Below are positions 28,112 through 59,736 of a DNA stretch of 64,000 bases, piece by piece. The notes under the pieces were generated by a model. It made no database searches. It worked only from the letters and a program-made list of their open reading frames with translations, and was not told the DNA's origin. The DNA is from a phage. Numbering within the stretch: the first letter of the stretch is position 1; every line of letters begins with the position of its first letter. The stretch lies in the sequence record PV419677.1; one strand, written 5' to 3'. The translations under genes were made by a program, and so were the position numbers.

Positions 28112-28141
28112 ATTATGCACCCGGTCAATTCGGATGTACAC
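28112..28141 (-). promoter_or_regulatory. sigma70-like early promoter (-35 GTGTAC, -10 CATAAT)
   Basis: repeat cassette with CCATACTGAGTTAC leader. Confidence 0.45.
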
Positions 28142-28171
28142 TACTTTTTGAAGAAAATTTCAAATTTATTC

Positions 28172-28206
28172 GGGGTATAAAAAAGCCCCAACCTTTCGGA
28201 AGGGGC
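28172..28206 (-). terminator. intrinsic terminator 3' of the tRNA/stable-RNA cluster
   Basis: GCCCC..GGGGC hairpin followed by a six-U run on the minus strand. Confidence 0.55.
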
Positions 28207-28215
28207 TATGCCTTG

Positions 28216-28589
28216 CGGCAACCTTGTCGGGGTTCCACCTGCTAAGGCAAGTGTTTGTACGAAACGCCGGGATTTGAACCCGGTTATTAAGTAGTTGACG
28301 CTACTCAATATTTTTAAAAGGCCATATCTCGACCATATCCGAACGTTCCGTCAAAAACGCTGCTCGGCTTACGGCAAAGATATTCCCTCGAATCGATAAT
28401 TCTGTGCGCCGTTTCAGCTGTGATATAAGGGGACATCAACAAATCGTAAAGATTTATTAATGCCAGTCCTTAAACAGGGAACTTCAGTCCGACGACTTAC
28501 CGGTAGCGACCCGGTTTCTTGTTTGTTGCGCCGGTGAATGCTGATAATCAGTCTTCATACGACGGCTTGACTATATAATAGTCTTCATT
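28216..28589 (-). ncRNA. non-coding region 3' of tRNA-Arg, putative stable small RNAs
   Basis: ~375 nt with no ORF-track ORF; hairpins GACTAT-TA-ATAGTC and CTGAT-T-ATCAG; tRNA-like T-arm CCGGGTTCAAATCCCGG at 28266-28282. Confidence 0.4.
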
Positions 28590-31481: not shown

Positions 31482-32158
31482 TATATTACCTTATTAATTT
31501 TATCAAAAAGTTCTTCGAGTGTGCCATTGTTTTTAATAACAATGTCACTAGCTAGTGGTGGAAGTCCAGCTTCCGTAATGTGTGTATCAGTAGAATGATT
31601 TGCTTCATCGCGTTCTACAAAGATTATTGTAGCACCCATCGCCCGAAGCGAATCAAGTTCGTTCTTTTGACGAACATCTGGGACAACGTAATATTTATAT
31701 CCAGAATAGAGGTTGTCAAGATAATCGCACGCAAAAGTTTTAATCCAAAACATGCTGTCGAACTCTGTACAAACGATGTCAGTTCCAAGGGTCTGCATGA
31801 AACGTCTAACTGTCCAGGGCTCAACATTATTTAGTGTGTGAAATTCAATGATTTTACGAACCATATCTGGATTCGGAAGGTCAAGATTGTATTGTTGTTT
31901 CAACCATTCAAGAGCATCAACCAGAAGAATATAAGCTTCGGTGTTGTTCATTATCAAGGTTTTTTCACGGTCATAACCTTGTCCATCAAAATTTTCCAGG
32001 GTCAAATTGTGTGGCAGGTCTTGACGAATCCACGCTTTATAAAGCGCTTCTTTAATCGGACCTGCAAGCTGCCACTTTGTTCCGTTTTGACTAATAACAT
32101 AATCAGCAGTCGTATCTTTACCACTGCGTTTTTTACCCACAATCGCAATTAATTTCAT
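31481..32158 (-). CDS. 1: deoxynucleoside monophosphate kinase
   Basis: MKLIAIVGKKRSGKDTTADYV P-loop and overall match to T4 gp1 as recalled. Confidence 0.85.
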
Positions 32159-32754
32159 ACGTTTCTCATAGATGGATGCATTGACTTAGACCTGATTTCC
32201 TGTTGCATTGCTGCATTACTATCAATCTGTGGTCTACCTTCTATTATTATACCATCAATTTCTACAGCAAAAGACTTAAAGTTAAAAGTTGCTGTTGCAT
32301 TGATAGCCGGGTCAGAATCTTCTTTATATGAGTACTGAATCTCTGACAGGTCGGACGGCCATGCTCCATAGTAATGGATTGACATGACAATTTTGTCCTT
32401 GTTGTTATCTAAGATATGAAGCGTGACCGCTTCGGGGCGACCCTTCGGATGCCATGCTTTTGATTCGTGTGTGATGTAGTTGTTGAGCGAGAGCATCCAT
32501 TTATAGATGTCAAGCCATGCTCTTAAGTCTTTGTCACACAGAAAGTTAACAATCAGTGGGTCGAATTCTATTGTACTACCAGGAAGGCTGGAGCGATTTA
32601 TACCTTGTGTTCCGCCCGGAACATCCGTCACAGGAATGTGAACTCCAGGGAGGGTAACATCTTGAACGTTGAGTTTAAAGGTCTGTGTGAGGTTTGAATC
32701 GCTTACCTCTAATATAAAGTTAGTCGTGTTAGTTTGATTATATAAACCTGACAT
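32155..32754 (-). CDS. 3: tail completion / tube terminator protein gp3
   Basis: 199 aa at the T4 gene 3 position (order 1-3-2-4); assigned by synteny. Confidence 0.55.
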   Translation of the reverse strand: MSGLYNQTNTTNFILEVSDSNLTQTFKLNVQDVTLPGVHIPVTDVPGGTQGINRSSLPGSTIEFDPLIVNFLCDKDLRAWLDIYKWMLSLNNYITHESKAWHPKGRPEAVTLHILDNNKDKIVMSIHYYGAWPSDLSEIQYSYKEDSDPAINATATFNFKSFAVEIDGIIIEGRPQIDSNAAMQQEIRSKSMHPSMRNV

Positions 32755-32839
32755 AATGCACCTTGTTTGCTTTAAAACAATCAGTGTTATAATGGTTCTA
32801 GACCTTTTGTCCTTACCAATAACACTGACCGATAATAGA

Positions 32840-33514
32840 TTATTTTATTAATGTGTTAAGTCTTAGCTTAGTCATAAACGGATAACGTTCCAACATTGGC
32901 TTTACCCAGTATCGAGGATGCAATTCCTTTTTATATGCTAGGACCAACTCTCGAGCTTGCTCGACGGTATCAACTCCGAAGTTTTTACACATTTCTTGCC
33001 TATCTTTTTCCCACCGGCGCTTTCTCAATTCATCCTGAATCTCTTTATTTTTAAAATGTTCATTATTGCGAGAATGTTTTGTACCCTTGGTTGGACTGTA
33101 ATGTCTTCCTTTGACAAACCCATCCGGAACATCTTCCCATGGAAATAGTTTTATCGATTTGACACCATTATTAAAGTAAACTTTACCGGTTTGACTTTTA
33201 GAAATATTGTCAGCGTGCCTACGTCTTAACCAACCAAATAATTTATTATTGCGTTTCAAATACTTGCTTGACTGACTCATAGATGTGGCGGCAAAACTTA
33301 AACCTGGATTTGTATGATATATTTTAACCAATAGTTGATGGGCTACATAATGTTCCTCTGGAGTCAAATCGACCAGATTATCTGGGTCATTGGAACCGCC
33401 CATACATTTTGGAATGATGTGATGAGATTCTTTATATGAAATCAGGACCCTATTACGGGCCCTTTCAATTAACGATAAATATATAAACTGATAATTCAAA
33501 GTGAATTTCTCCAT
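32840..33514 (-). CDS. HNH homing endonuclease
   Basis: [29 protein letters not shown]; inserted between genes 3 and 2, overlaps gene 2 3' end. Confidence 0.7.
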
Positions 33515-34332
33515 ACTTTCTGTGAAGAAAATCTTTTGCCTTTTGAAAAAAACTGCTGAAGGGGGAGTAATACAACGTTTGCCCAGTCGCTGGGCTTGAT
33601 TTCAGTGATAGTACCTTTTATATTGCCAGGTATATATGCTTTAATCATCTGGTCAGCCCCTTTAAATCCCTTCACCTTTGACCAATCAATCTTCAGATGA
33701 GTCTTGTTTGTAATCGTAGGAGTATTGGCATATTGTTTAAGAAGTTCCTCAAGGAACTCTTGACGTGCCTTCGGTGGAATATAGTGCAAGTTCAAACCAT
33801 ACATCAAATTGTGCTTACCTAGCCCAAGATAAATGATTAACGGATATTTGTCCCAGTATGGAAGAGTATCCTTATGCTTTGCATCATAGATATAAGCATA
33901 AAGTTTGCCCGGTTGAGGTTTAGCCGTTACGTGCCCACGAACTGATTTCTTAATTGTCTCTGCGAACCATCTGGCAGATTTGGTGTTGCTTGCAGCACCT
34001 TCGTTAGCAATCTTATCTCTTATGCTCTTTCTAAAGCTATTCACCATTATCAGCTGGCGTTCTGCCTTCGTAAGTTTACCAGCAGGTTTCTTTTTGAGTT
34101 TAGATACTTTATAAGCAGTCTGAATTCTTGAATTGTATCTTGACATGCTTTTGGTAAAGGTCGAATAGTTGATTCCTTTCTCTTCAGCAAACTTCTTCGA
34201 GGTCATTCCCTTTTCTTTTGCTGTATAAAATTCAACCCCTATCTCAACCCATTGTTGTTCGGATTTACTGGGTTTCGGACCTGGTTTATCTGCAGATTCA
34301 TTGATAAATGTAAAAATACTCATCCTTTCCAT
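33496..34332 (-). CDS. 2: DNA end-protector protein gp2
   Basis: 278 aa basic protein at the T4 gene 2 position; by synteny and size. Confidence 0.6.
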
Positions 34333-35048
34333 CCTTCTATAAAATTAATCAAATCATTTTTTAAATAGTATGGTAAGGTTTCTGTATAGCCATCGACCAT
34401 AATATCTTTATTCAAATAACCTCTGTCTTTTATATATAATACAGATATTGCGGATTCTAACATTTTGGCTTGTGCACCCAGTTCAAATTCTCGATAATAT
34501 AATTTGGAACTAATGCATTTGGAAAAATGATTTTGCTGCCACAATCTAAAATCATGATTGGAAGTTATACCATACTTTAAAGCAGTTCCGCCCGGATATT
34601 CTATTTTATTAACATAAACAATAGCAGGTTTCTTTGCGTTAAATCCTTTGTGACAACAGTTTGGACATCCTTTGTTTTTTGTTGTAAAGTTGTTTAGATT
34701 TGTAATCCAACTGGTTGAACATGTAGAACACTTTATATAGGCTTTTGATTTTGTAAAAGTTGAATATGTGGTATCCCATTTATCAAAACTATACAATGGA
34801 TTCACGGAATTTATTCTTGTGATTGCATCTAATTCAGATATTAATTTGCTTTCACCATAAGAACGTTTTAAATTACAATTAGAACACCAACTTTTTGTTT
34901 TTAACTTATGCTTTAAAACAGTTGCTTTGTATTTGCATGTTTCTTCACATATAAAGCACTTTACAAATATCAAAGTTTTTGATTTATTAAAATCGCCTTG
35001 TCCCACTATCTCGCCATTTGTGATGTTAAAATCTGAACAATCGTACAT
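34320..35048 (-). CDS. zinc-finger protein with C-terminal GIY-YIG-like motif (putative endonuclease)
   Basis: N-terminal Cys clusters; [21 protein letters not shown] followed by a conserved Arg; inserted between genes 2 and 4. Confidence 0.45.
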
Positions 35049-35500
35049 TATAAACCCTTATATCCCATTTTTCTAAGCGCATCTTCAGTAATCAATCTAA
35101 ACTGGATGCCCATTTTATCGGCTACGGCCTGCGCTGCTTTCCACTTATCCTTGTTGACGGCCCAAGTGTACATTTCGTTCATGAATCTCTTCTTGCTCGC
35201 GGCAGTCGTATTAACTGGTTTTGCTGGAGGCCTTGTTTCCTTTTTGGGTTTGACCTCAAAGAAAAACTGTTGTCCATTTGAGAATTTCACCCACATATCC
35301 ATGTAATATCTGCGTTTTTTACCATCCGCATTACTGAAATATGGAATAATTACGGTCTCTGACCCCCATTGCACCACATCTGGATGATTATCCAACCAGT
35401 TAAATACAAATTTTTCCCAGTTTGACCTGTATGTGATTTTCTTCCAGTCTCCTTTGTACTTGGCAACGTTTTTTGGCTGCCACTTCCCGGAGTATGCCAT
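35048..35500 (-). CDS. 4: head completion protein gp4
   Basis: 150 aa; MAYSGKW N-terminus; T4 gene 4 position and size. Confidence 0.75.
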   Translation of the reverse strand: MAYSGKWQPKNVAKYKGDWKKITYRSNWEKFVFNWLDNHPDVVQWGSETVIIPYFSNADGKKRRYYMDMWVKFSNGQQFFFEVKPKKETRPPAKPVNTTAASKKRFMNEMYTWAVNKDKWKAAQAVADKMGIQFRLITEDALRKMGYKGL

Positions 35501-35528
35501 ATAGCCTCCTAATAAATATTGATATACT

Positions 35529-35536
35529 TATTTATA
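35529..35536 (-). promoter_or_regulatory. late promoter octamer TATAAATA for gene 4 (minus strand)
   Basis: exact octamer ~30 bp 5' of the gene 4 ATG; plus-strand TATAAATG near-consensus faces gene 53. Confidence 0.5.
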
Positions 35537-35548
35537 AATGGAGGCTTT

Positions 35549-36151
35549 ATGCTTTTTTCATTTTTTAACCCAATTGATTATGATGCTAAAACAATCAGAA
35601 AAAACTCGGCATCATTAACGAAAGAAGACGTCTTAAGCATCCCAATGACTGACATCTTCAGAAACTATCGTGCATATTTTGATAAGGTTGCGGTTAATTA
35701 TACACCGAAAACATATTACATCGCTGGAGCTCCAAGACCTGAAGAACTTGCATATCAGCTCTATGGTAATACTCAACTCTATTGGGTTCTCCTTATGCTT
35801 AATGATATCTATGACCCGTATTATGGTTGGATATGTTCACAAGAATCATCATATCAGGCATCAATTCAACGCTATTCGAATATAGGTGGTAATCAGGTTC
35901 TTTATCATGTAAATGAAGATGGTGAAAAATTCTGGAATCTTGTTTCTTATCCTGATAATCCATACACATGGTATGATAAAGGTGATAAGAACAAATTATA
36001 CCCACAGTATGAAGGCCCATTAGCTGCAGTGGATATCTACGAAGATGCTATTCGCAAAAATGAATATAAACGAGAAATAAAGATAATCGACCCTAATGAT
36101 ATCGAATCATTTATTTCGGCATTAATCCGCGAGATGGAGAAGGCGCTATGA
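35549..36151 (+). CDS. 53: baseplate wedge protein gp53
   Basis: from MLFSFFNPIDYDAKT; ~200 aa; matches T4 gp53 as recalled. Confidence 0.8.
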   Translation: MLFSFFNPIDYDAKTIRKNSASLTKEDVLSIPMTDIFRNYRAYFDKVAVNYTPKTYYIAGAPRPEELAYQLYGNTQLYWVLLMLNDIYDPYYGWICSQESSYQASIQRYSNIGGNQVLYHVNEDGEKFWNLVSYPDNPYTWYDKGDKNKLYPQYEGPLAAVDIYEDAIRKNEYKREIKIIDPNDIESFISALIREMEKAL

Positions 36152-37890
36152 TTAATATGTCAGATAGTGTAAGTTGGTTCGTCGGTGTTGTCGAAGACCG
36201 AATGGACCCACTTCAACAAGGTCGTGTTCGTGTTCGTGTATGGGGTATGCATCCATATGAGAAATCGCAAGGGCCTGTAAAAGGTATCAGAACTGAAGAC
36301 CTGCCCTGGATGTCTGTATTGATGCCAACATCATCTGCATCGGTTTCCGGTATTCAAACTGCCATGACTGGTATGGTCCCGGGTACTCAAGTATATGGTC
36401 ACTTTTTGGACAAATGGAAGCTCAATGGATTAGTCCTTGGTACATATGGCTCAGCATCAAGACAGAAGGCAAACACAACAGAAGGTTTTAGTGACCCCAC
36501 AGGGCAATATCCGCTTTATGTGGGCAATGATGCTGCTGCGCTTAACCGAGGCGGTGAGGTCGGTTATGATGACACTTCAAACGTAATTCAGGATGCAAAC
36601 CTTGATTTGGGTATTAACCCTGATGGCCTTGATTTGAGTCAAGTTAAGCCAGATGATAATCCTAATTTCACAATTGAAAATATGCTTCACCGCGATGAAG
36701 GTCTTCGTCTGAAAGTATATTGGGACACTGAAGGTTATCCTACTATAGGTATAGGACACTTAATTACACCACAACCTATTAGAGATATGAATCAGATAAA
36801 CAAAATATTATCCAATCAAATAGGCCGTGAAGTTAAAGGTAACCCTGGTGCAATATCAATGGACGAGGCTTCTAAGTTATTCCAAGAAGACCTTAAAAAA
36901 GTCCAAAATGATATAGGTAGACATAGTGTTGTAGGTCCGGTTTACAATAAAGAAAACCGTTCAAGACAAATGGCTCTTGAAAACATGGCTTTCCAAATGG
37001 GATTAGGTGGACTTGCTAAATTCCGTGGAATGCTTAGTGCAATGTTAATAGGCGATTATAAAAAGGCATTTGAAGAAGCTCGCAATTCAGTATGGTTTAA
37101 CCAAACTAAAGGACGTGCATCAAGGGTATCAATGATTATCCTTACTGGTAATATGGAATCATATGGTATTATGGCCCCTAAAGAAATGGAATTTAAAGGG
37201 CGTTCATATAGGATGATTCAAACCTTTGCGGCCCCTACAAATTCTGACCCGGCCGACCCGTGGACTCCAGAAGATACGAGGATTCTATTTAAAGAGCCAG
37301 AATCAAGTTACAAGGGCGAATATCCTTATGTACAGACAATGCAAACCGAAGGCGGACATATTCAGGAATTCGATAACACTCCAGGACAAGAACGTTATCG
37401 ACTGATTCATCCGACCGGTTCCTATGAGGAAGTTGCACCAGATGGTCGTAAGACTTCGAAGACGGTAGCCGATGGCTATTATATGACCCAGGGTGATTCA
37501 AGCACTTATGTTGGCGGGAATAATAAAGTCAACGTTGGCGGTGATGAAACCTATTACAATATGGCTAACGTTCGTCGTCAGACTGATGGAAACGAAAGTA
37601 TTCATATCAGAGGGAATGAAACCAAAACTATCGAAGGTGATGGTACAATTATCGTCAAAGGTAATGTAAGTATTCTTGTCGAAGGTAATGCTGAAATAAC
37701 TGTCAAAGGCGATGCAAAAACTCTTGTCGAAGGTGACCATGATTATACGGTAAATGGTAATGTCAAATGGTCCGTTAATGGAAACGTTGATATGACCGTG
37801 GCTGGCAATTGGTCCGAAACAATGTCAACAATGAGTTCTATTGCATCTGGTCAATATACTATTGATGGTTCGAGGATTGACATTGGCTAA
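36148..37890 (+). CDS. 5: baseplate hub/tail lysozyme gp5
   Basis: 580 aa; OB-fold N-terminus, lysozyme segment HRDEGLRLKVYWDTEGYPTIGIGHL, C-terminal VxGxxxxx beta-helix repeats. Confidence 0.9.
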   Translation: MINMSDSVSWFVGVVEDRMDPLQQGRVRVRVWGMHPYEKSQGPVKGIRTEDLPWMSVLMPTSSASVSGIQTAMTGMVPGTQVYGHFLDKWKLNGLVLGTYGSASRQKANTTEGFSDPTGQYPLYVGNDAAALNRGGEVGYDDTSNVIQDANLDLGINPDGLDLSQVKPDDNPNFTIENMLHRDEGLRLKVYWDTEGYPTIGIGHLITPQPIRDMNQINKILSNQIGREVKGNPGAISMDEASKLFQEDLKKVQNDIGRHSVVGPVYNKENRSRQMALENMAFQMGLGGLAKFRGMLSAMLIGDYKKAFEEARNSVWFNQTKGRASRVSMIILTGNMESYGIMAPKEMEFKGRSYRMIQTFAAPTNSDPADPWTPEDTRILFKEPESSYKGEYPYVQTMQTEGGHIQEFDNTPGQERYRLIHPTGSYEEVAPDGRKTSKTVADGYYMTQGDSSTYVGGNNKVNVGGDETYYNMANVRRQTDGNESIHIRGNETKTIEGDGTIIVKGNVSILVEGNAEITVKGDAKTLVEGDHDYTVNGNVKWSVNGNVDMTVAGNWSETMSTMSSIASGQYTIDGSRIDIG

Positions 37891-38422: not shown

Positions 38423-38715
38423 TGGCTGGATTAAGTTTTAATCAATGTGTTACAGCAGGCCACGAAGCATGGCCGCCGACTGTAATTAATGCAACTCAAG
38501 GTAAAGTATTCACCGGGGGAATTCCAGTATTAGTTGCCGGAGACCCTATTACCGAGCATACCGAAATTAAAAAACCATATGAAACCCATGGCGGAGTAAC
38601 ACAACCAAGAACTTCAAAGGTATTCGTCACCGGTAAGAAAGCTGTTCAAATGGCAGACCCGATTTCATGTGGTGATACTGTGGCTCAAGCCTCGGGGAAG
38701 GTGTTCATAAAATGA
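38422..38715 (+). CDS. 5.4: PAAR-repeat spike-tip protein gp5.4
   Basis: 97 aa; the T4 gp5.4 size and Gly-rich PAAR-like pattern. Confidence 0.7.
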
Positions 38716-39389
38716 ATAAAGAATTTAATTTTGTGTATATAACCACAAACCTTAAAAATGGTAAAAAGTATATAGGTAAACATTCCACGGATGATATGTT
38801 TGATGGATATTATGGTACAGGAGAGCTTATCAAAAAAGCTTATAAAAAATATGGAAAGGATTTGTTTGAGACAAAAATAATAAAATTTTTTGATACTGAA
38901 GATGAGGCTTACGACTACGAAGAATTTTTAGTAGACGAATCTATAATTTATGATGATAGATATTATAATATAGATTTGGGTGGCAAAGGAAGTATGCGAG
39001 GAAGAAAACATAAGGAATCTTCAAAGAAGCAAATATCAGACAAAATGAAGGGTAGGTCAAAGCCACCACGAAGTAAAGAATATATTGAAAATTTTGAAAA
39101 AGCTATGGCCAAAAGGAGAAAGCCTAAACCACCTCCTAAGCCGAGGGTTTTTGTTAGAGGAGAAGAACATCCTTTATATAAAAGATCAAGACCGCAATCT
39201 GTTATTGACCTATGTAAACTTAATAATAGAAAACACCCCATATGGCAATCATATGATATTTTATTCAAATTATGGAAAGAAAATGATAAGCCAGGTTGGA
39301 GAAAAATGACCAGATTAGCCATTGAAAACGGATTTCCAAATACGGCTTATGATAAAATGATAAAACAATTTAAACAGGATTCAGAATAA
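38712..39389 (+). CDS. GIY-YIG homing endonuclease (Seg-like)
   Basis: [27 protein letters not shown] motif; basic C-terminal DNA-binding region; inserted between 5.4 and 6. Confidence 0.75.
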
Positions 39390-57083: not shown

Positions 57084-59063
57084 ATGGCTTTATTATCCCC
57101 GGGCATTGAGCTCAAAGAAACAACGGTACAAAGCACTGTTGTTCGTAACGCGACGGGTCGTGCGGCGCTGGTTGGTAAATTCCAGTGGGGCCCAGCTTTC
57201 CAGGTAACTCAAATTACAAACGAAGTTGAACTTGTTGATTTGTTTGGTGGTCCGAATAATGAAACAGCAGATTACTTTATGAGTGGGATGAACTTCCTGC
57301 AATATGGTAATGACCTCCGTACTGTACGTGTTGTTAACCGTGACGAAGCTAAAAACGCATCCCCTATTGCTGGCAATATTGAAACTACCATCGTAACTGC
57401 TGGTACAAACTATGCTGTCGGTGATGTTATTCAGGTTAAACACAACCAGACTGTTGTTGAACCGGCTGGCCGTGTGACCAAGGTCGACGTTGATGGTAAA
57501 ATTCTGGCAATCTTTATTCCTACAAATAAGATTATTGCATTTGCCAAAACTATTAACCAGTATCCTAATTTAGGTAGTGCATGGACCGCGGAAGTTACAA
57601 CCACTTCTTCTGGTGTATCTGGTACCATCACCGTTGGGAAAATTGTTACCGATTCTGGCATTCTGTTGACTGAAGCAGAAAACAGTGAAGAAGCAATTAC
57701 TTCTCTGGAATTCCAGGCATCACTAGCAAAATATGCAATGCCAGGTGTTGTTGCTCTTTATCCAGGTGAAATCGGTTCGACTTTGGAAGTTGAAATCGTA
57801 TCTAAAGCTGACTTTGAAAAAGGCGCAGCTGCAAATCTGAATATTTTCCCAGGCGGCGGAACGCGTGCTTCTGTGGCTCGTGCCGTGTTTAACTATGGCC
57901 CGCAGTCTGAAAACCAATATGCAATTATCGTTCGCCGCGATGGCGCAATCGTCGAAAACGTTGTTTTGTCTACCAAACAGGGCGAAAAAGATGTTTACGG
58001 TAATAACATTTACTTGGATGACTACTTTGCAAAAGGTACTTCCAACTACATCTATGCAACATCTCGCAACTGGCCTGCAGGCTTCAGTGGTATCATCAAT
58101 CTGTCTGGTGGTATTTCTGCAAACGATAAGATTACCGCTGGTGATTTGATGCAAGGTTGGGACCTGTTTGCTGACCGTGAAGCACTGCATATTAACCTGC
58201 TTATCGCTGGTGCTGTTGCCGGTGAAGGTGATGCGACTGCTTCCACTGTTCAGAAACACGTGGTTTCTATTGCTGACGAACGTCAGGATTGTCTGGCATT
58301 TATTTCCCCGCCGAAAGGTCTGTTGGTTAACGTTCCTCTGACCCGTGCAGTGGATAACCTGATTGACTGGCGTACAGGTGCTGGCGCATTTGATACTGAT
58401 AACATGAATATCAGCACGACTTATGCAGCGATTGATGGCAACTATAAATATCAGTATGATAAATATAATGACGTTAACCGTTGGGTTCCTCTGGCAGCTG
58501 ATATGGCTGGTCTGTGTGCTCGTACTGATGATGTTTCTCAGCCTTGGATGTCTCCGGCTGGTTATAACCGCGGTCAGATTCTGAACGTTCTGAAATTGGC
58601 TGTTGAACCACGTCAGACCCAACGTGACCGCATGTATCAAGAAGCTATCAACCCGGTTGTTGGTTTCGCAGGTGGTGATGGTTTTGTTCTGTATGGTGAT
58701 AAGACTGCAACTAAAGTTCCATCTCCGATGGACCATATTAACGTTCGTCGTCTTACGAATATGCTGAAGAAAAATATCGGTGATGCATCCAAATATAAAC
58801 TGTTTGAGCTTAACGATAACTTCACTCGTGCATCATTCCGTATGGAAACTTCTCAATACTTGGATGGTATTCGTGCACTTGGTGGCATTTATGAAGGTCG
58901 TGTAGTTTGTGATACTACTAACAACACCCCGGCGGTTATAGACCGAAATGAGTTTGTTGCTAGCATATATTTTAAACCAGCAAGGTCGATAAATTTTATC
59001 ACGCTTAATTTCGTAGCAACAAGCACGGGCGCTGATTTTGATGAGTTGATTGGAGCGAACTAA
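57084..59063 (+). CDS. 18: tail sheath protein gp18
   Basis: 659 aa, same as T4 gp18; synteny. Confidence 0.9.
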   Translation: MALLSPGIELKETTVQSTVVRNATGRAALVGKFQWGPAFQVTQITNEVELVDLFGGPNNETADYFMSGMNFLQYGNDLRTVRVVNRDEAKNASPIAGNIETTIVTAGTNYAVGDVIQVKHNQTVVEPAGRVTKVDVDGKILAIFIPTNKIIAFAKTINQYPNLGSAWTAEVTTTSSGVSGTITVGKIVTDSGILLTEAENSEEAITSLEFQASLAKYAMPGVVALYPGEIGSTLEVEIVSKADFEKGAAANLNIFPGGGTRASVARAVFNYGPQSENQYAIIVRRDGAIVENVVLSTKQGEKDVYGNNIYLDDYFAKGTSNYIYATSRNWPAGFSGIINLSGGISANDKITAGDLMQGWDLFADREALHINLLIAGAVAGEGDATASTVQKHVVSIADERQDCLAFISPPKGLLVNVPLTRAVDNLIDWRTGAGAFDTDNMNISTTYAAIDGNYKYQYDKYNDVNRWVPLAADMAGLCARTDDVSQPWMSPAGYNRGQILNVLKLAVEPRQTQRDRMYQEAINPVVGFAGGDGFVLYGDKTATKVPSPMDHINVRRLTNMLKKNIGDASKYKLFELNDNFTRASFRMETSQYLDGIRALGGIYEGRVVCDTTNNTPAVIDRNEFVASIYFKPARSINFITLNFVATSTGADFDELIGAN

Positions 59064-59130: not shown

Positions 59131-59736
59131 GTGATTATTTCTAAATTTGTTGAAGTTCAAATACGAAATCATGCAAAGTGGTGGAGCGAATACTTAGGTA
59201 AAACTCTAACATATCATGATGTGATTTCTGTACCAGTTGAACAAATGCCAGATAATAGTAATAAAAAGATTGAATGTTCCTGTGATGAATGTGGTGCACA
59301 TTTTGAACGTGGTATTCAGTTGCTTCGGCGCGTTGATAAACATTTATGTAAGACCTGCGCAAGAAAAGATGTGGGTGCAAAAGTTTCTGTAAAAATGGCT
59401 GGAGTATCAAGATTTGATTTACGAGGAGAAAACCACCCTAGATGGAAAGGTAATCGCAAAGAATATGATTTGTATGCCCAGCGCATTCATGCATTAACTC
59501 GTGGAAAACATCTAAAGAATATTTGGTCAACATGGGAAAATGCAGATAAGATAGGAAAATGTGGAGAAGAAGGTGCATATCAGCTTGACCATAAAGTTTC
59601 TATTGCATATGGATTTTATAATCATATACCAGAGACAGTTATCGCTTCGCTCAACAATTTAGAAATAGTCACTTGGGAATCTAATAGGTCCAAAGGAAAA
59701 TCAAATAGTATTGACTTATGGGATATATTATCCTGA
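59131..59736 (+). CDS. HNH endonuclease with N-terminal zinc finger
   Basis: YQLDHKVSIAYGF..NLEIVTWESNRSKG HNH motif; CSCDECG..CKTCARK; GTG start; inserted between genes 18 and 19. Confidence 0.65.
   Translation: MIISKFVEVQIRNHAKWWSEYLGKTLTYHDVISVPVEQMPDNSNKKIECSCDECGAHFERGIQLLRRVDKHLCKTCARKDVGAKVSVKMAGVSRFDLRGENHPRWKGNRKEYDLYAQRIHALTRGKHLKNIWSTWENADKIGKCGEEGAYQLDHKVSIAYGFYNHIPETVIASLNNLEIVTWESNRSKGKSNSIDLWDILS

Follow-up and report, generated by a model that had tools for sequence, protein, structure and literature searches.

A putative T5orf172-type homing endonuclease gene at the gp4/gp2 junction of a T4-like Gaprivervirus

T5orf172 genes are common in phages, and homing by them is inferred in the literature from genomics rather than shown. 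In a survey of 229 T5orf172 homing endonuclease genes (HEGs), 87% carried one or more CapR/DUF723/DUF4379-type fingers N-terminal to the nuclease (Barth, Dunham and Seed 2023, PMC10448857). Such genes cluster beside essential genes and are replaced at the same sites by other HEG classes; T4 has no T5orf172 gene (PMC10448857). The PLE repressor CapR has been shown experimentally to be a zinc-finger DNA binder (Netter et al. 2021, PMC8096241), and putative ICP1 HEGs with C-terminal T5orf172 domains have N-terminal regions homologous to it (PMC8096241). The T5orf172 nuclease activity of Odn requires a conserved Glu (E180A) (PMC8263062). Here we describe a 242-amino-acid open reading frame (ORF) between gp4 and gp2, at 34320..35048 on the minus strand of a 64,000-nucleotide stretch of phage DNA (record PV419677.1; the window). 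We read it, with a probability of roughly 70%, as an intact free-standing HEG of the T5orf172 branch of the GIY-YIG superfamily that homes to HEG-less relatives, because it combines a conserved nuclease domain with a patchy distribution and interchange with a Seg-type HEG.

The ORF resides in a T4-like Gaprivervirus: positions 33400-35600 match Shigella phage fPSFA at 100% identity and Escherichia phage vB_EcoM_RZ (RZ) at 98%. The T5orf172 HEGs of ICP1 (gp53, gp121, gp130, gp165 and gp174), of T5-like phages and of Plateaulakeviruses show the same repeated N-terminal Cys4 fingers and C-terminal T5orf172 domain. With these HEGs the ORF also shares variable presence among close relatives, essential structural genes as neighbours and same-site exchange with other HEG classes. 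What sets it apart is its T4-like background (phages of E. coli and Shigella), its short two-finger form, a divergence too great for a direct Pfam T5orf172 match and membership of a clade that stays at the gp4/gp2 junction. The ORF is an ordinary, somewhat divergent addition to a known class, with unusually clear signs of recent movement.

Three described proteins allow a closer comparison. The product of T5 gene T5.141 (YP_006969.1, 250 amino acids, annotated 'endonuclease') shares ~36% identity with the ORF product across residues 86-227 and contains two CapR domains (85.9 bits); its C-terminal motifs are the same in the alignment, and it is likewise wedged between essential virion genes. 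It belongs to another phage family, however, and its gene lies between the tail assembly chaperone and tape measure genes, following a putative transcription terminator, whereas the window ORF appears translationally coupled to gp4. Odn (ICP1 Gp88) resembles the ORF in its C-terminal T5orf172 nuclease, its conserved Arg and Glu, its lack of a helix-1 His/Tyr and its modular N-terminal DNA-binding domain, which sets specificity (PMC8263062). Unlike the ORF, with its zinc fingers and HEG genomic signatures, Odn has a RepA_N domain and targets a satellite replication origin as counter-defence. PLE CapR, the capsid operon repressor, shares a homologous CxxC...CxC zinc-finger DNA-binding module, but in the published alignment it covers the N-terminal region of the ICP1 HEGs only, and it acts as a repressor. 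The ORF falls outside such a CapR-like class of fingers without a nuclease, as it keeps a full C-terminal domain with invariant predicted catalytic residues.

Modules, predicted fold and constraint of the ORF product

An exhaustive phmmer search covering 1.84 billion cluster representatives recovered 1097 homologous representatives of the ORF at E ≤ 1e-3 and 102 at E ≤ 1e-10. The family became visible through this search; a word-indexed protein search gave only 2 proteins. PHROG 681 ('endonuclease') matches the ORF at E 2.5e-29, and neither NCBIfam nor PADLOC yielded a match to it. Given the 1097 homologous representatives and an overall ratio of nonsynonymous to synonymous substitution (dN/dS) of 0.15 relative to the orthologue of Yersinia phage MHG19 (P0002; 69% identity), a comparison in which dS is near saturation, the ORF is, judged from sequence, a real and intact gene, more than a product of chance.

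The N-terminal half contains four CxxC pairs (C31/C34, C55/C58, C107/C110 and C128/C131), forming two putative zinc-finger modules (Table 1), so that the ORF has two of the N-terminal CapR/DUF723/DUF4379 Cys4 modules typical of the class. None of the eight Cys varies between the ORF and its four closest homologues; C55, C58, C128 and C131 are invariant or nearly so in a 45-sequence family alignment, with C55 and C58 at least 90% conserved. The sole Pfam match of the ORF itself falls in module 2, where DUF4379, a 'probable treble clef zinc finger', matches residues 100-133 at E 4.6e-4 with a sub-threshold 20.8 bits (threshold 24.5). The same stretch in P0002 scores above threshold for both CapR (PF21817, 30.6 bits) and DUF4379 (27.2 bits). 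Searching the PDB sequences with a profile returned zinc-finger matches only (mS66, mt-SAF33/DUF4379 and HypA), with no nuclease among them. A recent internal duplication of the finger modules was considered and rejected, as BLASTP between the two was not significant.

An AlphaFold2 model built on the 45-sequence alignment (mean pLDDT 91.6) has two small strand-strand-strand-helix zinc modules at residues 12-67 and 86-135. Module 1 comprises strands at 12-17, 26-31 and 37-41 and helices at 42-51 and 56-67. Residues 142-239 form a strand-strand-helix-strand-helix-(strand)-helix domain with the three-stranded sheet and flanking helices of the GIY-YIG fold. Compared with known GIY-YIG structures, this nuclease domain gave values of 6.8 for At-HIGLE/SLX1, 6.2 and 5.8 for SLX1, 4.5 for PD-T4-3, 4.4 for EF2693, 3.9 for the I-TevI catalytic domain and 3.5 for the UvrC N-terminal domain. 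Foldseek with the full model found noise only in the PDB (E ≥ 0.3) and 134 matches at E ≤ 1e-3 among viral predicted structures (BFVD). Many of the latter carry UniProt names such as 'CapR homology domain-containing protein', 'T5 Orf172 domain-containing protein', 'Homing endonuclease' or GIY-YIG.

Profile matches of the homologues point the same way. Across the 45 aligned homologues, DUF4379 was matched in 38, CapR in 33, MUG113 in 23, T5orf172 in 15 and GIY-YIG in 5. Namely, T5orf172 scores 19.5 bits in P0002 (69% identity), just under the threshold of 20, and passes it with 21.7 bits in P0004 (39% identity) and 30.6 bits in P0005 (33% identity), where MUG113 is also above threshold at 31.4 bits. 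Through such transitive homology only, the C-terminal domain is homologous to T5orf172 (PF10544) and MUG113 (PF13455). Because the Pfam matches of the homologues, the model fold and the structure comparisons agree, we identify the C-terminal half as a GIY-YIG-superfamily nuclease domain of the T5orf172 branch.

Residue conservation is consistent with this assignment. The set invariant across the 45 sequences consists of C128, C131, Y145, K158, G160, R168, E198, G220, E223 and T224, and I161 and T222 are at least 90% conserved; R168 and E198, predicted to be the catalytic Arg and Glu, both belong to the invariant set. The order of the motifs and the secondary structure suggest that Y145, Y159 and R168 are the counterparts of I-TevI Y6, Y17 and R27, and by secondary-structure position R168 and E198 would be equivalent to I-TevI R27 and E75, with E198 also corresponding to Odn E180. 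When the C-terminal sub-alignment was compared by hhalign with the I-TevI catalytic domain and with the N-terminus of the Seg-like protein of phage P479, only spurious 16-residue matches were returned. Such single-sequence templates are too weak to yield a residue-level alignment to I-TevI.

These results bear out much of a sequence-only reading of the locus. It had noted two Cys clusters in the N-terminal half, which are the C31/34-C55/58 and C107/110-C128/131 sets, and a GIY-YIG-like motif with a following Arg in the C-terminal half, in which Y145, K158, G160 and R168 proved invariant in the 45 sequences. Its proposal of a GIY-YIG-like nuclease would have fallen had neither profiles nor structure detected a nuclease fold; the structure prediction it called for instead gave a GIY-YIG-type C-terminal domain behind two zinc modules. 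It was also right that the domain order is inverted relative to Seg endonucleases. The suggestion of a novel architecture did not hold, as this layout is published for T5orf172 HEGs (PMC8096241, PMC10448857); inverted order is the norm among them, and the ORF is therefore no new architecture.

The same reading had allowed for a degenerate endonuclease, and we weighed the corresponding explanation that the ORF is a decaying, already inactive HEG remnant persisting between gp4 and gp2. HEGs often degenerate once fixed, and the ORF is divergent enough that Pfam nuclease models miss it directly. Yet the frame is full length, the protein is identical in four records, and every family-invariant residue is present, the predicted catalytic Arg and Glu included. 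Against the MHG19 orthologue, dN/dS is 0.12 for finger 1, 0.13 for finger 2 and 0.18 for the C-terminal domain, values that indicate purifying selection on all three modules; nothing in the sequence suggests decay. A mismatch-free tract around the ORF, described below, further indicates recent spread. We consider a remnant very unlikely.

Occupancy and exchange at the gp4/gp2 junction

The sequence-only reading had placed the ORF in the gap between genes 4 and 2, overlapping both, and the coordinates and the overlaps at either end agree. The ORF ATG and the gp4 stop have one base in common (TAATG at 35046-35050), and the ORF TGA runs into the gp2 start region (GGATGGAAAGGATGAGT), giving an overlap of 13 nt with the first gp2 ATG (34332) or an ATGA with the second (34323). 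In VR7 and SP18, gp4 ends in LGWKG with its stop overlapping the gp2 ATG; the window ORF ends in EGWKG. Because the last 15 nt of the ORF (GGATGGAAAGGATGA) copy the original gp4 3' end, gp2 stays translatable despite the insert. In Yersinia phage MHG19 a perfect 17-bp direct repeat, GGATGGAAAGGATAATG, stands on both sides of the ORF, so that the same sequence precedes both the ORF and gp2 starts; the corresponding upstream copy of the window is a diverged one (gp4 terminus GYKGL and stop, GGATATAAGGGTTTATAATG). As a separate observation on the downstream neighbour, residues 4-82 of gp2 match a PHROG 'HTH DNA binding protein' (phrog_32288, E 1.6e-28) and the DNA end protector family match covers residues 81-277 only; this gp2 may be a fusion or carry an N-terminal extension.

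We compared the junction across the best 30 Gaprivervirus records. The ORF lies between gp2 and gp4 in 4 of these (fPSFA, the RZ GenBank and RefSeq records, and DK-13), and the junction is empty in 23 (VR7, SP18, VR20, VR26 and others), where the gp4 stop overlaps the gp2 ATG. In P479, P8 and PSD2001, an unrelated gene of 215 amino acids sits at precisely this junction, again with the TAATG overlap. With a GIY-YIG domain at the N-terminus of its product, NUMOD3 repeats and a Cys motif at the C-terminus, it is a classical Seg-type HEG. The comparison of the gene 2-4 junction that the earlier reading called for thus uncovers empty, T5orf172-occupied and Seg-occupied states, and the ORF shows the variable presence in close relatives and the position beside essential genes expected of the class.

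The two occupants share more than a slot. Like the ORF, T4 Seg-type HEGs (the 215-amino-acid gene and a second gene in the window at 38712..39389) are free-standing and encode a GIY-YIG-superfamily fold with a tethered DNA-binding region, and the 215-amino-acid gene has the ORF's start overlap and gp4 allele. The Seg-type protein nevertheless shows no detectable sequence similarity to the ORF product, and its catalytic domain comes from a different Pfam family. The ORF itself is not of Seg type: its nuclease domain is C-terminal, and Pfam gave no PF01541, PF19835 or NUMOD3 match.

The gp4 gene of the window is a divergent allele, found at ≥90% nucleotide identity only in the 6 junction-occupied phages, three for each HEG type; the next best match is 73.6%. 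At the protein level gp4 is 99% identical between occupied genomes and 77-80% identical to that of empty-site genomes. DNA identity to VR7 is 68-76% across gp4 versus 94-99% on the gp2 side. Comparison of gp4 proteins between genomes with and without the HEGs revealed no simple diagnostic residue pattern indicating a target site.

A sharply bounded tract marks recent exchange. Over 863 bp covering the ORF, 27 bp of gp2 and 107 bp of gp4, the window and RZ show no mismatch, versus 26 mismatches in 791 bp on the left flank and 41 in 1,045 bp on the right (3.3-3.9%). At the flank rate ~31 mismatches would be expected (Poisson P(0) ~1e-14). DK-13 differs at 2 synonymous positions, and its tract likewise has its right-hand boundary at 35156. 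At the level of sequence, the mismatch-free tract proves recent shared ancestry of the segment relative to its flanks, and its sharp bounds narrow the expected location of a cut site.

The tract and the gp4 allele also bear on an explanation in which the ORF encodes an active nuclease used mainly for competition, cutting the DNA of co-infecting phages (marker exclusion) or parasitic elements as Odn does with PLE satellites. Odn demonstrates that T5orf172 nucleases can act as sequence-specific weapons against parasites (PMC8263062), an exclusion system would produce the kind of linkage seen here with a divergent gp4 allele, and homologues of the ORF have weak PADLOC matches to candidate defence proteins (E ~1e-3). 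The ORF itself lacks any such match, however, and the recently moved segment extends just 27 and 107 bp beyond the ORF, a pattern that fits the gene itself spreading. This explanation moreover overlaps heavily with homing, exclusion of flanking markers being a normal outcome of HEG cleavage. As a primary role, we judge competition unlikely.

Position is conserved among the nearest relatives of the ORF. The four closest homologues (MHG19, 69% identity; P0003, 45%; P0004, 39%; P0005, 33%) all lie between gp4 and gp2, beside gp53 and gp5, in other T4-like genomes or contigs. Together with the window ORF, this places the gene at one junction in five diverged lineages, and gp4 matches Pfam Tn7_TnsA-like_N (E 2.9e-22); both could suggest an accessory factor for head completion or DNA-end handling, acting with gp4, which has a TnsA-like nuclease fold, and with gp2. 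But most Gapriverviruses lack the ORF, an unrelated Seg-type nuclease can fill the slot, and family members elsewhere adjoin quite different genes, such as the T5 homologue between the tail chaperone and tape measure genes. We regard such an accessory role as the least probable of the explanations considered here, with hardly any claim on the data.

A broader proposal is that the ORF and its relatives make up one long-lived clade whose members are active T5orf172 HEGs, specialise in the gp4/gp2 junction of T4-like phages, compete with Seg-type HEGs for the slot and bring a protective gp4 allele with them. We consider the odds on this evenly balanced. RZ is recorded on E. coli K-12, and natural HEG-plus (RZ, DK-13 and fPSFA) and HEG-minus (VR7 and SP18) phages exist. 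If the proposal is true, this would possibly be the first tractable system for showing homing, mapping the target and reading the zinc-finger recognition code of a T5orf172 endonuclease.

Proposed mechanism and competing roles

In the homing mechanism that we propose, transcription would read through from a late promoter upstream of gp4, and the TAATG overlap would couple translation of the ORF to that of gp4. The two CapR/DUF4379-type Cys4 modules would bind a specific sequence, and the tethered C-terminal nuclease domain (Y145, Y159, R168 and E198) would cut DNA nearby. The target would be the allele without the HEG in a co-infecting relative, with the gp4/gp2 junction or the 3' part of gp4 as its most likely place. 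Repair by recombination, with the HEG-carrying genome as template, would then copy the ORF with short flanks into the cut genome, and the divergent gp4 allele would shield carrier genomes from self-cleavage. We infer nuclease activity, target site, immunity through the gp4 allele and mode of expression alike.

Expression by read-through late transcription and translational coupling is suggested by the surrounding sequence. The T4-type late promoter consensus TATAAATA occurs once on the minus strand within 32000-36300, upstream of gp4. Sigma-70-like sites were no more frequent than in shuffled sequence in a promoter scan of the locus (19 versus 15.9 ± 4.6). The best sigma-70 match, 35075..35047, was dismissed as its -10 box overlaps the start codon.

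Several points weigh against homing by this ORF. The ORF sequence itself matches no Pfam nuclease model even at E ≤ 1, and its family membership therefore rests on transitive homology and fold. The mismatch-free tract is no proof that the endonuclease caused the transfer. That homologues of as little as 33% identity retain the site could also stem from a long vertical residence with some benefit to the host phage. In most GIY-YIG enzymes, the position four residues after the catalytic Arg is a His or Tyr; the ORF has Q172 at this helix-1 position. Odn also lacks the helix-1 His/Tyr, yet is active (PMC8263062). Finally, homing of the putative T5orf172 HEGs of ICP1 is not experimentally verified (PMC10448857).

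Some of these points would also suit a domesticated or moonlighting DNA-binding regulator, in which, as in PLE CapR, the fingers bind a promoter or another site and so repress or tune genes such as gp2 or other late genes and the nuclease domain is inactive or irrelevant. CapR, a standalone homologue of the zinc-finger modules, is a transcriptional repressor (PMC8096241). The ORF sits within a late operon, its constant position, even in homologues with 33% identity, could mean that the phage profits from its function, and the helix-1 His/Tyr is missing. The nuclease domain is, however, constrained much as the fingers are (dN/dS 0.18 versus 0.12-0.13), with invariant Arg and Glu. A needed regulator would also not be expected to be missing in most close relatives or to trade places with a Seg-type HEG. 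We find a regulatory role improbable, and retain homing as the favoured reading.

The locus combines a compact two-finger member of the class with naturally occurring alleles, in phages of E. coli and Shigella, that are empty, occupied or alternatively occupied. It also illustrates HEG turnover, with two unrelated nuclease genes, one slot and one flanking gp4 allele. We see it as a good experimental model that leaves the current understanding of HEGs unchanged. The fPSFA, RZ and DK-13 GenBank records label the ORF 'hypothetical protein', an annotation that can become T5orf172-family (GIY-YIG superfamily) putative homing endonuclease.

Feature coordinates and other endonuclease-like genes in the window

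Table 1 Features of the gp4/gp2 junction, in window coordinates
Feature	Position	Strand	Details
Putative free-standing T5orf172-type HEG (whole ORF)	34320..35048	-	242 amino acids; ATG start
gp4, head completion (head closure) protein	35048..35500	-	Upstream of ORF; PHROG head closure, E 2.8e-61
gp2, DNA end protector	33496..34332	-	Downstream of ORF; PHROG 429, E 2.5e-78; translation start inside ORF 3' end
Zinc-finger module 1, CapR/DUF4379-type, treble-clef-like, putative DNA-binding	34848..35024	-	Residues ~9-67; C31, C34, C55, C58
Zinc-finger module 2, putative	34644..34802	-	Residues ~83-135; C107, C110, C128, C131
Predicted C-terminal T5orf172/GIY-YIG-fold nuclease domain	34323..34634	-	Residues 139-242
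GIY...YIG-like motif and Arg	34545..34625	-	A142-IVY145...K158-Y-G160-I-T...R168; motif residues 142-162, then R168
E198, predicted metal-binding catalytic Glu	34455..34457	-	Invariant in 45 sequences; in helix 2 (191-204) after strand 3 in the model
D219-G-Y-T-E-T224 motif	34377..34394	-	Near end of nuclease domain; G220, E223 and T224 invariant, T222 ≥90% (45 sequences)
GGATGGAAAGGATGA, final four ORF codons (GWKG) and stop	34320..34334	-	Identical to gp4 3' end in insert-free genomes; likely Shine-Dalgarno and gp2 ATG
T4-type late promoter consensus TATAAATA	35529..35536	-	Upstream of gp4; likely source of a gp4-ORF-gp2 transcript
Tract without mismatch to vB_EcoM_RZ	34293..35155		863 bp; ORF, 27 bp of gp2 and 107 bp of gp4

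The window holds further endonuclease-like genes. One, at 32840..33514 (minus strand) between gp3 and gp2, is a MobB-like HNH homing endonuclease gene (PHROG 655, E 2.4e-56). It is present in VR7 and P479 and not in SP18, RZ or DK-13, and together with the T5orf172 gene it brackets gp2 in the manner of 'HEG islands' (PMC10448857). At 38712..39389 (plus strand), between gp5.4 and gp6, is a 225-amino-acid Seg-type GIY-YIG HEG (Pfam SegE_GIY-YIG, 25.9 bits; PHROG 314 'homing endonuclease', E 3.7e-43); segment 38713-39388 is missing entirely from VR7, P479 and RZ.

Searching all window ORFs with a hidden Markov model (HMM) of the nuclease domain found no paralogue or second copy, including for a T5-ORF172-related gene. 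The VR7 gene VR7ORF148c (L006:1-447, corresponding to window positions ~28120-28520), near the tRNA region, is annotated 'similar to bacteriophage BF23 ORF172c', and Gapriverviruses may therefore carry a second T5-ORF172-related gene.

A 201-amino-acid ORF at 59131..59736 (plus strand) has an N-terminal CxxC...CxxC finger with a weak DUF4379 match, a match to the family HMM at E 1e-4, an HNH-like C-terminus by eye (DHKVSI...N...N) and a match to PHROG 5104 (unknown function, E 2.8e-75); it may be another HEG using the same kind of finger. Just upstream of it lies a 659-amino-acid ORF (57084..59063), which from its length and sequence we take to be the tail sheath gene gp18.

The neighbourhood of gp53 and gp5 is also variable. 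Between these two genes, P479 (L007:8671-9306) and PSD2001 (L011:4069-4704), both with the Seg-type gene at the gp4/gp2 junction, have an additional gene of 636 bp labelled 'hypothetical protein'. It is missing from the window, VR7 and RZ, and it may be another mobile insert of the same neighbourhood. Inside gp5, identity to VR7 and RZ falls to 57-77% at 36400-36500 and 36760-37260, compared with ~90-95% around these segments, which suggests mosaic exchange within the baseplate hub/lysozyme gene.

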